Source: a virus (lineage: Duplodnaviria; Heunggongvirae; Uroviricota; Caudoviricetes). Taken from it: DNA of 60,273 nucleotides. A model generated the notes under the pieces. The model searched no databases. It worked only from the letters and a program-made list of their open reading frames with translations, and was not told the DNA's origin. The DNA is taken from positions 1 to 60,273 of the IMG/VR virus record IMGVR_UViG_2778261541_000006. One strand, 5' to 3'. This document shows, in pieces, positions 8,391-27,329 of this stretch (positions are counted from its first letter, which is position 1; each line of letters starts with the position of its first letter). Made by a program: the position numbers and the translations under genes.

Positions 8391-9746
8391 TCAGAGTCTA
8401 TCAAAAATAGAGCCTTTTCTCGGTACAAATATTTTCTCATACAGTCGAGTAGCGTAATCATCTGTCATGCCTGAAACATAGTCGCAAATGACGCGCATTT
8501 TTTTATCATCACCTTTTGCTTCCTCTTGATTATATTTCTTTCGAGTTTCTGTCGGGAGAAAACGTATTGGGTCATTTGCCAGTACATTGAATAGTTCCAC
8601 AATCAGTTTCTGACCTTTGAACTCTAATAGTTGGACGTTTTCGTGCTGAATAACTTTGTTCCTAACCAGCTCAAAAATGGCTTTACGTAACTCTTCTACC
8701 GCGGCAGGAAGTGCCACTTTATAGCGTAAAATTTTACTTTTGAAATCAGAGTTCTGCACTTCAAGCTTAACGCTAGTGATCATCAGATGAACAAGTGTCC
8801 CTATGCACTCCTTGCGTAGATAACTTTCGCCGAACAGTTTTTCAGCTACATCATCGGCTTTTAGATTAAACGAGTCGCATTGGCAAGCTGCAAATAAATG
8901 GGATTTGTCCTCGAAGTGCTCCTCCCACATTTTTTTGTCGATCATCTTCAGAGAAATTGCGTCTTCAAGATCATGGAGTGAGTAGGATATCTCATCAGCC
9001 AAGTCCATAATCGTTGTATCCAGTGCTTTATATATTGTTTCCTTGTGCTTATTCAACGCGGTAGTTTTTACCGTTTTGAATAACTTAACATCATCACTAT
9101 CAAAAGGTTGGAGTGCGAATCTAACAGTGTTCTCCTCAGAGTCCAGGTAACATTTCGGGGGCTTAAATTCGGATGATTTAAACAACCACTCATTGCTTCT
9201 TGGCTGTAACTGGCTGTAAGCCCTCTCATTGACGACCTCTGAATAGCTTGCTGGATATTTCAGTACGCCTAAAATAAGTCTACGGGTGGGATCCAGCCCA
9301 TTGGTTTCGGTGTACTTATCCAGTTTGGAGAGTATACGCAGTGTCTGCCCGTTACCTTCAAAGCCGCCATAGGATCTCATGCAGTAGTTTAGTGCGACCT
9401 CACCACCATGACCGAAGGGGGGATGTCCTATATCATGAGCAAGGCAGATAGCCTGCATCAGGCTTGGGTCAGGTAAGAATTTACCCCCCTCATCTGTATC
9501 GCGCTTAGACAACTGAGACAAGATACCGCCGCCAATTTGCGCTACTTCCATAGAGTGAGTTAGCCGCGTACGGTAGAAATCGCTTTCGCCCAATCCCAAC
9601 ACCTGCGTCTTCGATTGTAATCTCCTAAAAGCGGAAGAGTGGATTAACCGGGAAAGATCACGTTCATACTCCGACCTTATCTCATTCGGGCGGGTGGTAT
9701 TGTACCCTTGACGCTCATACCAAGTATTTTCTTTGCAGTGTGTCAT
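8391..9746 (-). CDS. dGTP triphosphohydrolase-like HD-domain protein (Dgt family)
   Basis: Translation has the HD phosphohydrolase signature (RLTHSMEVAQIGG ... LAHDIGHPPFGHGGE) and an N-terminal RLIHSSAFRRLQSKTQV motif typical of Dgt-like dGTPases; start placed at Met34 of the track ORF (8391..9845), which has an AAAGGA RBS. Confidence 0.7.
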   Translation of the reverse strand: MTHCKENTWYERQGYNTTRPNEIRSEYERDLSRLIHSSAFRRLQSKTQVLGLGESDFYRTRLTHSMEVAQIGGGILSQLSKRDTDEGGKFLPDPSLMQAICLAHDIGHPPFGHGGEVALNYCMRSYGGFEGNGQTLRILSKLDKYTETNGLDPTRRLILGVLKYPASYSEVVNERAYSQLQPRSNEWLFKSSEFKPPKCYLDSEENTVRFALQPFDSDDVKLFKTVKTTALNKHKETIYKALDTTIMDLADEISYSLHDLEDAISLKMIDKKMWEEHFEDKSHLFAACQCDSFNLKADDVAEKLFGESYLRKECIGTLVHLMITSVKLEVQNSDFKSKILRYKVALPAAVEELRKAIFELVRNKVIQHENVQLLEFKGQKLIVELFNVLANDPIRFLPTETRKKYNQEEAKGDDKKMRVICDYVSGMTDDYATRLYEKIFVPRKGSIFDRL

Positions 9747-9924
9747 ACGTGTTCCTTTGGGCAGGATAGAGCAAGTCGCCTGCTTAATTGCTGAAGAAAG
9801 AAATACAAATTTGTAACGCTGTGGATCTTCTTTATGCGTCCACAATCAGTAAATATTGGATACTTGCAAGGTGCGCGAAACACTAAAGATTGTCAATTAA
9901 TAATTAACACCTCTTATAGTTACT

Positions 9925-10651: not shown

Positions 10652-11208
10652 ATGAAGGGAAAAACAGCCGCAGGAGGCGGTGCAATTTGCGCTATCGCGG
10701 TGATGATTACCATCGTGATGGGTAATGGCAATGTGCGAACCAACCAGGCGGGGCTTGAGCTTATCGGAAACGCTGAAGGTTGCCGACGTGATCCATACAT
10801 GTGCCCGGCGGGGTATGGACTGATGGGATCGGTAATACACACGGGGTAACGCCGGGTGTGCGAAAAACCGACCAGCAAATCGCCGCTGATTGGGAAAAGA
10901 ATATCCTGATCGCTGAACGCTGTATTAATCAGCACTTCCGGGGCAAAGACATGCCCGATAATGCCTTCAGTGCAATGACAAGCGCGGCATTCAATATGGG
11001 ATGCAATAGCTTACGGACCTACTACAGCAAAGCGCGAGGCATGCGAGTAGAAACGTCCATCCACAAGTGGGCGCAGAAAGAGGAATGGGTGAATATGTGT
11101 AACCATCTCCCTGATTTCGTGAACAGTAACGGCGTGCCCCTGCGAGGTTTAAAGATTCGCCGTGAAAAAGAACGCCAGCTTTGCCTGACGGGGCTGATCA
11201 ATGAATAA
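10652..11208 (+). pseudogene. lyz: SAR endolysin Lyz, interrupted by a -1 frameshift
   Basis: Two ORFs in different frames (10652..10849 and 10801..11208) together reproduce the P1 Lyz sequence as I recall it (SAR domain, Cys13, Glu42, Cys44, Cys51); the frame breaks inside a G run near 10809-10813. Confidence 0.7.
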
Positions 11209-11455
11209 ACTCCGGCAGCTCCGCCGACTTTCGACAATGAAGTTATCGCTGGCGGCGATAGTTTTCGACTCGATTTTCATGGCGGTATATGTGCTCAATG
11301 AGACGTGGCCACTGGAACCGCTATTATATGCCGGGCTTCGGCTGTGCCTGACATTTTTGAGCATGGCTGCGAGATTGATGCAGCAGAAAGAAACCGCTTC
11401 AGATTGTCCACGCCGCGCGGTGCGCAAATATATGGCACGCAGGCGAAGGCGATAA
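11201..11455 (+). CDS. small membrane protein downstream of lyz (LydD-like position)
   Basis: 84-aa ORF with a hydrophobic segment and basic C-terminus, overlapping the lyz stop. Confidence 0.35.
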   Translation: MNKLRQLRRLSTMKLSLAAIVFDSIFMAVYVLNETWPLEPLLYAGLRLCLTFLSMAARLMQQKETASDCPRRAVRKYMARRRRR

Positions 11456-11468
11456 TAGTTAACGATAA

Positions 11469-11496
11469 CCCCGGCAGCCGCCGGGGTTATTTTTGG
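11469..11496 (+). terminator. rho-independent terminator after the lyz cluster
   Basis: Hairpin CCCCGGC-AGCC-GCCGGGG followed by TTATTTTTGG. Confidence 0.5.
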
Positions 11497-11499
11497 TGG

Positions 11500-12835
11500 T
11501 TATCCGGTGCGCCGTAAAATCCCGTCCTTCAGGGAGGGGATATAAGGCGTGGTTTTCCACCTAACTGTTTTTGTTTAAAATAGTGGGATGAAGCGACTAC
11601 AAGCATTTAAATTCCAGTTAAGACCCGGTGGTCAACAGGAGCGTCAAATGAGGCTCTTTGCCGGAGCTTGTCGTTTCGTTTTCAATCGTGCACTGGCACT
11701 TCAGAATGAGAATTATGAGGCCGGGAATAAATACATCCCTTACACGAAAATGGCTTCCTGGTTGGTTGAGTGGAAAAAAGACACTGAAACCGAATGGCTT
11801 AAAGATTCTCCCTCACAGCCATTGCAGCAGTCACTGAAAGACCTTGAGCGGGCCTACAAAAATTTCTTCCAGAAGCGGGCGGCTTTTCCCCGATTCAAAA
11901 AGCGGGGACAGAATGATGCATTCCGCTACCCGCAGGGTGTTAAGCTCGACCAGGAAAACAGCCGTATTTTTCTGCCGAAACTTGGCTGGATGCGCTACCG
12001 TAACAGCCGGCAGGTCACGGGGATTGTGAAAAATGTCACTGTCAGCCAGTCCTGCGGTAAATGGTACATCAGTATTCAGACAGAAAGTGAAGTATCCACT
12101 CCTGTTCACCCTTCAGCATCAATGGTCGGACTGGATGCTGGCGTGGCCAGGCTCGCCACGCTGTCAGATGGCACAGTCTTTGAGCCTGTAAACAGTTTCC
12201 AGAAAAACCAGAAAAAGCTGGCGAGACTTCAGCGCCAGTTAAGCCGCAAGGTCAGATTCAGCAACAACTGGCAGAAGCAGAAACGCAAAATACAGCAACT
12301 GCACTCCCGTATCGCAAATATCCGCAGAGACTACCTTCATAAAGTCACAACGATCATCAGCAAAAACCACGCAATGATTGTCATTGAGGATTTGAAGGTT
12401 AAACACATGTCAAAGTCAGCGGCGGGTACGATAAGTCAGCCGGGTCGCAATGTCCGGGCAAAATCAGGTTTAAACCGTTCGATACTGGATCAGGGCTGGT
12501 ATGAAATGCGCCGCCAGCTTGAGTACAAGCAGCTCTGGCGTGGCGGTCAGGTGCTTGCTGTTCCGCCAGCGTACACAAGCCAGCGTTGCGCGTGCTGTGG
12601 TCATACAGCGAAAGAAAATCGCCTGTCACAAAGTAAATTCAGATGCCAGGTATGTGGATATACAGCGAACGCCGATGTAAACGGCGCTCGTAACATTTTA
12701 GCGGCGGGGCACGCCGTTCTTGCCTGTGGAGGGATGGTGCAGTCAGGCCGCCCGTTGAAGCAGGAACCCACCGAAATGATTCAGGCGACAGCCTGAACGT
12801 AGCAGGAATCCACGCCCGTCAGGGCGTGGAGGGTG

Positions 12836-12860
<25 letters not shown>
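11500..12860 (+). mobile_element. IS200/IS605-family element (IS609/InsQ-like), tnpB only
   Basis: Contains a full-length TnpB ORF; no tnpA (Y1 HUH transposase) ORF adjacent; imperfect palindrome CCACGCCCGTCAGGGCGTGG just 3' of tnpB is typical of a right-end hairpin; boundaries approximate. Confidence 0.5.
11588..12796 (+). CDS. tnpB: TnpB (InsQ-like) RuvC/zinc-finger nuclease of IS200/IS605 family
   Basis: 402-aa translation is near-identical, from memory, to E. coli InsQ (IS609 OrfB); C-terminal CxxC...CxxC zinc finger (CACCGH...CQVCGY). Confidence 0.85.
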
Positions 12861-15566
<2,706 letters not shown>

Positions 15567-25163: not shown

Positions 25164-25423
25164 AGCGCCCCCTACAAAAAAGAAAAGCCACCAGCGGCGG
25201 CTTAGCAATACAACTGAAGGTAGCGCCCGGTACTCAGACTGTGCCGTCCATGGAATATTTGAAAAGGGATCCATCCGTACCGGGCGTGTGATGATTCTGA
25301 CTGAAGTCACTTGTCAGTTGTCAATTATTTATTATTAAAAATAATATATTTATTAGTGCATACAAATAAGGCACTAAGTGTGCACATTGCAACCTCAGAG
25401 AGGAAACATTCAACTAGATTGTT

Positions 25424-25457
25424 ATTGCTCTAATAAATTTGATTTATTAGAGCAAAT
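25424..25457. promoter_or_regulatory. C1 operator pair upstream of icd-ant module 1
   Basis: ATTGCTCTAATAAATTT followed head-to-head by an inverted near-copy (ATTTATTAGAGCAAAT); matches the asymmetric 17-bp P1 C1 operator consensus. Confidence 0.6.
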
Positions 25458-25619
25458 AAACTACTATTGGACGCCAGACTATTGATCTTCCTGTTGTTCA
25501 GGCTTATAGTTCCTACGTCGTAGCAAATTCTGCGACCGGGTTTAGCAGCCTGAATGTACATGCGGACAACCGCAGATTTCCGATATTGCGGTATTTTTAT
25601 GTCCGTAAAACCGCGTTAC

Positions 25620-25700
25620 GCCCGAATTATGGTGGGGCGTGATGGGGAGGCTTCGGCCTGCTGGTTTCATGTACGCCAGTCTGCTAACCCCGTCACGTCC
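25620..25700 (+). ncRNA. candidate c4-like antisense RNA
   Basis: Segment containing CATGTAC and CTGCTAA, complementary to two copies each of GTACATG and TTAGCAG upstream (25542-25561) and at the icd RBS (25710-25749); extent approximate. Confidence 0.35.
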
Positions 25701-25757
25701 TGCCACCCGTTTAGCAGCGGGTAGCAGGTTGTTAAACCTGTACATGAGGCCGTAACT

Positions 25758-25979
25758 ATGGTTAATGCCAATCCTTGCGCACGCCCTGAATTTATCTGGC
25801 GCTTTTACTCCTGCCAGAAACGTCACTATCACTTCGTTATCGCACCAACAGAAGATGAGGCACGTTCTCAGCTTCCGGATGCTCCCTGTATTTTCTCTGC
25901 CCGCTTTTCTACCGATTTGCGCAATTCTCTCAGTTACTGGTGCCTCCCTGTTAACGCTTCTGCTCAGGAGGGGCTATGA
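25758..25979 (+). CDS. Icd-like small protein, translationally coupled to ant
   Basis: 73-aa ORF overlapping the downstream antirepressor start by 4 nt, the arrangement of P1 icd-ant1. Confidence 0.5.
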   Translation: MVNANPCARPEFIWRFYSCQKRHYHFVIAPTEDEARSQLPDAPCIFSARFSTDLRNSLSYWCLPVNASAQEGL

Positions 25980-27088
25980 GAACGTCATTAGTCACCCGTG
26001 AAGAGATGATCGAGGCAATTGAACAGCACACTGCCTGTATCAGTACCAGGGATATACCAGGCGTTATTGCCAACTACTTCATGATCACCAAACAACTTTA
26101 CCGGAGAAAGGACAAGAACGCGGTTCACCGCATTCTTCTAACTGATATCCGTGAATACCTGCTCGAACAGGGTCGTCTTGATTATGCAACCGTAACCGCC
26201 GAAGCACGCAAGGAGGCACACAGAATGAAAGCAACTAACGTTAAATCAGAAAAAATTCATGCACCTTCAGTTCAGGAATCGGAGCTGGTGGTTGTTCAAA
26301 ATCAGCCGGATGAAATTCCCGTTCTGGAATGGCAGGGAGTACGTGTCGTAACAACCGAAACTCTTGCTAAGGGGTACGGAACCGATGAAGGCAATATTCG
26401 TAAAAATTTGTCTTGCAACTCCGATCGCTTTGAAGAAGGTAAACACTACTTTCTTTTAACTGGTTCAAAATTAAGAGAATTTAAGAACAGAGTTACTTTT
26501 AGTAACTCTGTTGGTAAGAACGCCAGAAACCTCACTCTCTGGACGGAACGCGGCGCAGCCCGCCACGCTAAAATGATCGAAACCGATCAGGCATGGGCAT
26601 TCTTTGAAAAACTGGAAGACAGCTACTTCCGGCAAAAAGAACAGCAACCGGTCGCAATCCCTCAGACGCTTCCCGAAGCTCTGCGCCTGGCTGCCGAGCT
26701 GGCTGAACAAAAGCAACTTCTGGAACAGAAAGCCCACCAGCTAAATCAGCAGCTGGTGGCCGCAGCCCCTAAGGTCGATTTTGCCGACCGGGTATCAGTG
26801 GCTAAGGGGATCCTGATTGGGAATTTTGCAAAGGTTGTTGGACTTAAGCAAAATGCGCTGTTTGCCTGGTTACGGGAGAACGGCATCCTGATTGCGTCCG
26901 GCGGACGTAAAAATGTACCGTTTCAGCAGTACATAAACGCCGGATATTTCACAGTGAAAGAAGTGGTGCTGGATGATGAAGATGGCTATCAGATACGGCT
27001 GACGCCTCAATTAACGGGTAAAGGCCAGCAGTGGTTGACGCGTAAACTGCTCGATGCTGGCTTGTTAAAACCGGTGGCGGCTGAATGA
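25976..27088 (+). CDS. phage antirepressor (ORF6N N-domain plus KilA-C/Ant C-domain), copy 1
   Basis: 370-aa ORF; central motif IPVLEWQGVRVVTTETLAKGYG and C-terminal region VSVAKGILIGNFAKVVGLKQNALFAWLRENGIL are characteristic of antirepressor families. Confidence 0.65.
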   Translation: MRTSLVTREEMIEAIEQHTACISTRDIPGVIANYFMITKQLYRRKDKNAVHRILLTDIREYLLEQGRLDYATVTAEARKEAHRMKATNVKSEKIHAPSVQESELVVVQNQPDEIPVLEWQGVRVVTTETLAKGYGTDEGNIRKNLSCNSDRFEEGKHYFLLTGSKLREFKNRVTFSNSVGKNARNLTLWTERGAARHAKMIETDQAWAFFEKLEDSYFRQKEQQPVAIPQTLPEALRLAAELAEQKQLLEQKAHQLNQQLVAAAPKVDFADRVSVAKGILIGNFAKVVGLKQNALFAWLRENGILIASGGRKNVPFQQYINAGYFTVKEVVLDDEDGYQIRLTPQLTGKGQQWLTRKLLDAGLLKPVAAE

Positions 27089-27092
27089 TTAA

Positions 27093-27115
27093 AAAAGGCG
27101 GCCTTTCGGCCGCCA
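27093..27115 (-). terminator. terminator for the cre-side transcript
   Basis: Hairpin GGCGGCC-TTTC-GGCCGCC preceded on the plus strand by an A run, i.e. followed by a T run on the minus strand. Confidence 0.4.
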
Positions 27116-27329
27116 ATGATGTCAAGGAGTTAAGTAATGGCTCGTCTTCGTAGTTGACAAAAACCGCGGCTCAATTATAGCAATAAATTAGAGCAATGGT
27201 AGATATTTTGTTTATCGCGAATCATATTTTTTCACTTCAGTACCAGTGTGCTATACTCCTTCTTGATTGATTGGATGCGGAATACAAACCCGCTCTTTTG
27301 TGCAGCCTGGCTCCTTGCCAGGCTTTTTT

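Follow-up and report, generated by a model that had tools for sequence, protein, structure and literature searches.

A tnpA-less, probably IS609-derived element with an intact tnpB at the lydE/pro junction of a P1-like phage

The window analysed here, that is, the whole of a 60,273-nucleotide stretch of viral DNA, belongs to a P1-like phage and is oriented opposite to NC_005856. It carries a 1336-bp insertion that we consider, with high confidence, to be a non-autonomous member of the IS200/IS605 family: a derivative of IS609 without tnpA, which has retained the two transposon ends together with an intact tnpB and a predicted guide-RNA scaffold, and which would have arisen and persisted by the mechanism proposed in the Discussion. 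The element provides a natural example of a tnpB-only IS200/IS605 derivative with a traceable autonomous parent, of an insertion precise enough to be survived by both of the genes it overlaps, one of which (pro) borrows its stop codon from the element, and of a TnpB guide that would by construction be directed against a gene conserved in sibling phage-plasmids.

The insertion is already known. Venturini 2019 (PMC6906374) reported an IS609 insertion in the P1-like plasmid pJIE250-3 and an IS609-like sequence in pSvP1, and the RefSeq name of the gene is 'RNA-guided endonuclease InsQ/TnpB family protein'. Judged by its published description, the pJIE250-3 insertion lies where the window element does, with the head-processing genes (prt, pro) on one side and the lysis genes (lydE, lydD, lyz) on the other; the 1340 bp given there equal the 1336 bp found here plus TTAT, and the published cleavage sites, TTAT on the left and TCAA on the right, are alike (PMC6906374). 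That report predates the discovery that TnpB is RNA-guided, and a guide RNA, the loss of tnpA and the effects on LydE and Pro are undiscussed there.

Results

Alignment with P1 by blastn placed the insertion precisely. The 1336 bp at 11504–12839 (+) interrupt otherwise contiguous P1 sequence, with window position 11503 corresponding to position 2502 of the P1 locus and window position 12840 to position 2503. Written as flank / element and element / flank, the junctions read ...GGTGGTTAT / CCGGTGCGCC...GGGTGTCAA / TTAAACGGG, and no bases are common to both junctions of 11504–12839, hence there is no target-site duplication. A preliminary description of this DNA had put the element at the junction of the lysis genes and pro, at 11500–12860, in a place where canonical P1 has no IS. 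The site stands, as does the contiguity of P1 across the lydE/pro junction; the span is corrected to 11504–12839, which clips lydE and pro. The element and its immediate surroundings are as follows.

11465–11499, + strand: P1 backbone terminator-like hairpin and T-run, inside the 3' part of lydE (DNA fold)
11500–11503, + strand: TTAT, target tetranucleotide 5' of the left end (comparison with K-12 IS609 and relatives)
11504–12839, + strand: whole IS609-derived, tnpA-less element, 1336 bp (blastn against P1)
11504–11562, + strand: left end (LE), identical to the K-12 IS609 left end at 59 of 63 aligned positions
11563–11588, + strand: 26-bp joint that replaces the tnpA segment (alignment with K-12 IS609)
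11588–12796, + strand: tnpB, 402 amino acids (ORF, Pfam, NCBIfam and alignment to ISDra2 TnpB)
12809–12830, + strand: right-end (RE) subterminal hairpin (DNA fold and covariation)
12836–12839, + strand: TCAA, right-end terminal tetranucleotide (end of homology among relatives)

The tetranucleotides at the two boundaries recur among related elements. TTAT precedes the left end in the window, in K-12 IS609, in the copy on pNT1F34-108k and in five of the six relatives with a recognisable left end, the sixth having TTAC. In an alignment of 3' ends from 31 relatives (Serratia, Yersinia, Photorhabdus, Xenorhabdus, Morganella, Erwinia and other genera), homology among all of them stopped precisely at GTCAA, beyond which the flanks are unrelated. 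By analogy with characterised TnpBs, TTAT is presumed to serve as the TAM of the TnpB encoded by the element.

The upstream terminator, which the preliminary description had assigned to the lysis genes, does lie outside the element. A hairpin at 11465–11490 is followed by TTTTTGG, and the fold of 11455–11503 has an energy of −13.5 kcal/mol (z = −4.2). The same hairpin is found in P1 itself and is thus backbone context, and K-12 IS609 likewise sits directly after a hairpin and a T-run ending in TTAT. A simple promoter/terminator scanner did not flag the hairpin at 11465–11490, though folding supports it.

Both ends of the element carry subterminal hairpins. That of the left end is imperfect (11519–11541; fold of 11504–11587, z = −3.5). 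At the right end, the palindrome CCACGCCCGTCAGGGCGTGG lies at 12810–12829, 14 nt past the tnpB stop codon, and its presence 3' of the gene is as first described; it is, however, a perfect rather than an imperfect 8-bp inverted repeat (9 bp with the flanking T/A, 12809–12830) with a 4-nt loop. The 60 nt from 12780 to 12839, which include the RE hairpin, fold with −19.1 kcal/mol (z = −5.3 versus shuffles), and five of the nine pairs of the hairpin show compensatory changes among relatives. A subterminal hairpin at each end, the lack of terminal inverted repeats and the lack of a target-site duplication are traits of the IS200/IS605 family. IS608 of Helicobacter pylori, the paradigm of this family, has no terminal inverted repeats, generates no duplication, has subterminal hairpins and a right end in TCAA, inserts 3' of the tetranucleotide TTAC and carries its own tnpA. 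The window element resembles IS608 in its ends, hairpins and TCAA, and differs from it in the TTAT target and the absence of tnpA.

The closest described element is IS609, as represented in E. coli K-12 (NC_000913 1503161–1504908), where 1748 bp comprise the tnpA pseudogene yncK and insQ. Across the left end, tnpB and the right end, the window element shows 94% nucleotide identity to K-12 IS609 and ends at the same positions, starting with CCGGTGCGCC after TTAT and finishing in GTCAA, and the encoded proteins, TnpB and InsQ, are both 402 residues long with 378 of 402 identical (94%). The two differ in length (1336 versus 1748 bp) and in the start codon of tnpB, which is ATG in the window and GTG in IS609. 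Elements of at least roughly 95% nucleotide identity are counted by ISfinder as the same IS. With 94% identity at both the nucleotide and amino acid levels the present case is borderline, and the element is probably best termed IS609-like, as in the preliminary description, a relative of K-12 IS609 rather than an identical copy of it.

The difference in length reflects the loss of tnpA. In the alignment, the ~440-bp tnpA (yncK) segment of IS609 is replaced by 26 bp, leaving only 84 bp from the left end to the tnpB start. This joint holds a promoter-like TTTCCA-16 nt-TAAAAT, a consensus match in a promoter scan, which ends 7 nt before the ATG, and pNT1F34-108k has an identical 26-bp joint in its copy of the element, which is 94% identical. 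With the IS609 TnpA remnant yncK as query, tblastn found no credible tnpA anywhere in the 60-kb window; one weak match (E 0.005) at 15087–15218, inside an ORF corresponding to the P1 portal gene prt, was judged to be due to chance. Hence the Y1 HUH transposase TnpA is not encoded and the element is a non-autonomous derivative rather than a complete IS609, which bears out the earlier statements that no tnpA is adjacent and that the element could not move by itself. K-12 IS609 has also decayed: an in-frame stop interrupts tnpA/yncK. For IS609 tnpA, an intact copy (WP_000604943.1) is annotated on an O157:H7 chromosome, and 4327 of 5426 complete E. coli genomes contain the tnpA region of IS609. 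From this prevalence we infer that a transposase acting in trans is plausible in natural hosts.

TnpB was assigned from its domains and by alignment. Pfam recognises HTH_OrfB_IS605, OrfB_IS605 and Cas12f1-like TNB domains, and the NCBIfam model guided_TnpB matches at 389 bits (cutoff 100). Among natural proteins of solved structure the nearest is ISDra2 TnpB (PDB 8bf8, 8exa, 8h1j; E 2.5e-51), and the RuvC triad D183/E267/D363 aligns with D191/E278/D361 of that protein. The C-terminal zinc finger of the 402-residue protein, which the preliminary description had recognised, comprises C334/C337/C353/C356, with CxxC at 334–337 and 353–356. All ten residues termed critical in PMC12781874 are matched with a constant offset of +2; in the portion of that paper considered here, IS609 TnpB is purified and no activity is reported for that protein. 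A literature search returned nothing specific on IS609 TnpB activity or on TnpB in phage-plasmids. Compared with ISDra2 TnpB (Karvelis 2021, PMC8612924), the window system has the same domain order, the RuvC D-E-D, a zinc finger and a scaffold that would extend over the 3' end of the gene and the right end; ISDra2 TnpB is a distant homologue and its motif is TTGAT, versus TTAT for the window element.

Inactivating mutations, which the preliminary description had named as an observation that would speak against it, are absent from the window ORF, and all catalytic and zinc-binding residues are kept. Codon differences from K-12 insQ comprise 44 synonymous and 24 non-synonymous changes, and those among nine full-length P1-borne copies comprise 23 and 14, respectively. 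The excess of synonymous over non-synonymous changes points to purifying selection on tnpB. Two of ten P1-borne copies are pseudogenes, that of E. albertii with a stop at codon 332 and that of E. fergusonii EF91 with a frameshift, and thus tnpB is dispensable.

The right end and the sequence on either side of its boundary were examined for the components of a guide RNA, with the following candidates.

12693–12839, + strand: predicted omega-RNA scaffold, overlapping the 3' end of tnpB and the right end (RNAalifold)
12840–12855, + strand: flank, within the last codons of pro, from which the omega-RNA guide would be read: TTAAACGGGTTGATTG (from TnpB biology)

RNAalifold was applied to a 28-sequence alignment of the last 220 nt and gave 47 pairs, ten of them with compensatory changes and several within the coding region, with 98.1% of cells in the predicted scaffold paired. 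The ten compensated pairs compare with 4.8±1.1 in shuffles (0 of 500 reached ten) and with 1–4 in slid controls, this covariation being measured across the family, at the level of the relatives rather than within the P1-borne copies. A long-range helix, 12693–12698 with 12831–12836, closes the structure just ahead of the terminal CAA, and many of the scaffold pairs are G-U and so valid on the sense strand only. Rfam matches over 12669–12849 to RAGATH-18 (28.1 bits versus 44.9), HgcC and sot0042 fell below gathering thresholds and provide a hint only. The modelled structure supports the view that 12693–12839 is a sense-strand structured RNA of ~147 nt, as expected of an omega-RNA, and in this respect the conserved right-end RNA structure lends support to the guide-RNA activity suggested in the preliminary description. 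The RE hairpin is also a DNA-level recognition element for TnpA, so that part of the conservation could come from transposition and not from RNA.

In IS200/IS605 elements, the TnpB guide comes from transcription of the DNA that directly follows the right end, and the TAM is the target motif (PMC8612924, PMC10055086). The corresponding stretch, TTAAACGGGTTGATTG, is unique in the window and equals the target in the uninterrupted site. By analogy, the predicted target of the guide is the lydE/pro junction in its uninterrupted form.

Rather than lying wholly between genes, the insertion affects both of its neighbours. In P1, lydE and pro are convergent and overlap at the insertion point, and the element removes the last 17 nt of lydE and splits the last sense codon of pro. 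The two genes now read as follows.

11305–11517, + strand: lydE (antiholin), whose C-terminus differs from that of P1 LydE (translation)
12836–13855, − strand: pro (head processing protein), intact save for a C-terminal K to N change (comparison with P1)

Translation shows that the last five residues of LydE, FKRID, become SGAP, which are read from the left end of the element. Pro ends in PFN* in the window, versus PFK* in P1, and its stop codon TGA (minus strand, 12836–12838) is supplied by the terminal TCA of the element. RefSeq annotations of the same allele agree, the antiholin in pE2865-1 extending 14 nt into the element.

Among 25 phage records matched, all 19 P1-like records that span the site are without the insertion, as are P1 and P7. 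PLSDB contains 491 records with the region, of which 434 have an uninterrupted site and about 40 (~8%) a filled left junction. A gene common to all P1-like genomes, which the preliminary description had named as the observation that would speak against an insertion confined to a lineage, was therefore not what we found: empty P1, P7 and 434 PLSDB records beside about 40 filled ones agree with a lineage-specific insertion, and a P1 backbone (core) gene was rejected on its absence from P1, P7 and ~90% of P1-like plasmids. Copies on plasmids of E. coli, Salmonella and E. fergusonii are at least 98.7% identical and all lie at the lydE/pro site; the E. albertii copy is more divergent, with 37 differences from the window. 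One of the 19 P1-like phage records, vB_EcoM-673R5, has a different IS200/IS605 element, located in prt.

Of 20,395 E. coli replicon records, only 60 match the tnpA-less joint between LE and tnpB in full. In the search with this joint, 65 of the places matched were on plasmids, and the alignment of chromosomal copies began only at the start of tnpB. The same tnpA-less architecture, with the identical 26-bp joint and ~6% divergence, also follows TTAT at other sites, namely on pNT1F34-108k and on pCREC447-2, where it lies beside icd/ant and its neighbour genes are P1-like in appearance. The non-autonomous form has thus moved more than once.

With E. albertii excluded, the element differs by 0–16 nt among carrier plasmids, versus up to 28 nt in the 1-kb flanks. 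Filled alleles occur on at least seven right-flank haplotypes, each of which is also seen with empty alleles. Position +9, a synonymous position of an Asn codon in pro, was compared between filled and empty sites. In IMG/VR, G is present in 8 of 8 filled alleles and in 1 of 42 empty ones, the other 41 having A. In PLSDB there are 27 empty-G, 288 empty-A, 27 filled-G and 14 filled-A records, counts that are approximate in that the 40-nt megablast queries also returned matches at 97.5% identity. Filled copies with A at +9 were directly seen in Salmonella and in E. fergusonii EF91. Against the commonest empty allele, the sole mismatch of the predicted guide would be an rG:dT wobble at guide position 9. 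Repeated independent transposition into the lydE/pro site was considered and is unlikely, the +9 flank allele mostly travelling with the element. A rare empty allele, 'TCAA', has lost TTAT and retains the last four bases of the element.

Discussion

We propose that the element was inserted by single-strand 'peel-and-paste' transposition, with IS609 TnpA catalysing in trans, and that it was later inherited vertically and shuffled by homologous recombination among P1-like backbones. TnpB would bind an omega-RNA of ~150 nt from 12693–12839 that carries a guide of ~16 nt from the flank (UUAAACGGGUUGAUUG). The complex could then cut where TTAT adjoins a guide match, that is, at the uninterrupted lydE/pro junction, either after excision or in related P1-like genomes, and repair from an element-bearing copy would restore the element and so favour its retention. 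Retention of this kind has been described for TnpB (PMC8612924, PMC10055086), as has a plasmid gene drive (bioRxiv 10.1101/2025.02.20.638934).

A comparable class is formed by IS1341-type (tnpB-only) elements and PATEs, which are non-autonomous, have IS200/IS605 ends and no tnpA, and are presumed to be mobilised in trans. The window element differs from these in that its 94% identity allows it to be traced to one autonomous parent, IS609.

Whether the element is still of any consequence to itself or its host can be argued in several ways. It may be an inert passenger, a stranded relic that no longer moves or acts and that persists only through plasmid inheritance and because its position, in the final codons of lydE and pro, is tolerated. 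The lack of tnpA in the window is in keeping with such a relic, as are the pseudogenes in two of ten copies, the decay of the chromosomal K-12 IS609 and the fact that plain linkage accounts for the +9 association. We nevertheless regard this account as possible but doubtful, since the ORF is full in eight of ten copies, synonymous changes exceed non-synonymous ones, the catalytic residues are all intact, the ~6%-diverged tnpA-less form at other TTAT sites must have been mobile, and the element is far more uniform than its flanks among carrier plasmids. Co-option of tnpB by the phage, for example as a TldR-like nuclease-dead regulator or to modify lysis by way of the changed LydE, is highly improbable. 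Its fixed position in a sub-lineage and the changed LydE C-terminus would suit a domesticated gene, yet the distribution, with the gene missing from P1, P7 and ~90% of P1-like plasmids, largely refutes this view; pseudogene copies exist, both transposon ends are present and intact, and the protein is full-length with its RuvC triad intact, unlike TldR, so that a nuclease-dead regulator of the TldR type was rejected.

The opposite possibility is that the element is currently active against other phage-plasmids, TnpB/omega-RNA cutting co-resident or superinfecting P1-like genomes that have an empty site and either converting them (homing) or eliminating them (competition). By construction the empty site offers TTAT together with a match to the guide, within the conserved 3' end of pro; the narrower variation of the element relative to its flanks and the occurrence of carriers in at least seven flank haplotypes also held by empty alleles would fit such an activity, and TnpB gene drive on plasmids has already been demonstrated experimentally for IS605 (bioRxiv 10.1101/2025.02.20.638934). 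TnpB plasmid gene drive could be studied here in a temperate-phage setting. We consider an active drive or weapon unlikely, however. The frequency of the element is merely ~8%, the P1 prophage is a low-copy plasmid, and ordinary recombination in mosaic P1-like genomes yields the same haplotype pattern. Moreover, fully matching empty-G records equal filled-G records in PLSDB (27 versus 27), so that susceptible alleles are unswept, and the 27 empty-G together with the 14 filled-A records rule out a sweep of all susceptible sites by the element; the association at +9 is explained by ordinary linkage to a minority haplotype plus recombination. The fuller proposal, in which the element acts as an RNA-guided homing drive or anti-competitor weapon against rival P1-like genomes with an uninterrupted lydE/pro junction and the 'TCAA' allele is a drive-resistant footprint of element loss, seems to us distinctly improbable as a whole.

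An element-free TCAA allele at the lydE/pro junction

A shared partial match to the lydE/pro site was found in six P1-like plasmids from PLSDB, two of which were read (L144 and L145, stretches of NZ_CP045829.1 and NZ_CP013030.1). The element is absent from both, and the site reads GGTGG-TCAA-TTAAACGGA as opposed to GGTGG-TTAT-TTAAACGGA.

Features of the element-free plasmids
L144 2990-3010 (NZ_CP045829.1) and L145 2990-3010 (NZ_CP013030.1): element-free TCAA site, corresponding to window 11495-11503 joined to 12836-12845
L144 1250-2990: icd-like and KilAC antirepressor module (for comparison, window 11448-11464 and 25422-27124)

The TCAA is identical to the last four bases of the IS609-derived element, and Pro in both plasmids ends in PFN followed by TGA, as in the filled alleles. 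Judged from these junction sequences, the allele looks like the footprint of an imprecise loss of the element, in which a 1,336-bp deletion with a 4-nt shift would also have removed the TTAT motif, although two substitutions could instead have produced the same four bases. In both plasmids the 1.7-kb icd-like/KilAC module, which shares 88.7% identity with window 25422-27124, is inserted upstream of the IS609 site at a distance of ∼40 bp. Insertions seem to be favoured at the lydE/pro junction, as at a hot spot.

Related phage-plasmids have other IS200/IS605 elements just past pro, in or beside prt, among them ISEc42 and a further annotated TnpB. Elements of this IS family seem to have accumulated repeatedly in the head-processing region.

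Other IS200/IS605 elements near prt
L057 5615-6300: E. albertii p2RM10705
L002 4023-4754: vB_EcoM-673R5

Variation among tnpB copies and a second lineage

The window copy of tnpB differs from the other P1-borne copies at 8 nucleotides within window 12526-12718, six of them inside 37 bp, and the sole resulting amino-acid change is R318H. At seven of the eight positions the window agrees with the K-12, O157 and pNT1F34 copies, and at the eighth with two of those three. On these alignments, either the window copy would be basal among the P1-borne copies or a gene-conversion patch may divide the two groups. The tnpB stop codon is mutated in several P1-borne copies (1585-2799 in L060, L061 and L062), where TnpB ends in ...QATALT and has 404 residues, the two extra residues being read into the right end.

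Another lineage of the tnpA-less element occurs at other sites in large plasmids, with 94% identity and an identical 26-bp joint between the left end and tnpB.

Second-lineage copies
L143 4001-5336: pCREC447-2
L005 3001-4336: pNT1F34-108k

TTAT at the insertion was read directly in the pNT1F34-108k copy only. One second-lineage copy adjoins the icd/antirepressor genes of its plasmid, where the genes around it resemble those of P1.

Neighbouring genes

Genes on the lydE side of the element (window coordinates)
8391-9845 (-): 484-residue ORF past ssb
10652-11208: lyz (endolysin), split around 10810

Compared with P1 and pE2865-1, lyz lacks one G of a run of five (GGGGG to GGGG), and this 1-nt deletion, shared with phage vB_EcoM-673R5, splits the gene. 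Either the homopolymer was misread in sequencing or the endolysin is truly inactivated. Genes of vB_EcoM-673R5 at the position matching the 484-residue ORF are annotated as dGTP triphosphohydrolase-like; canonical P1 has isaA at this position.
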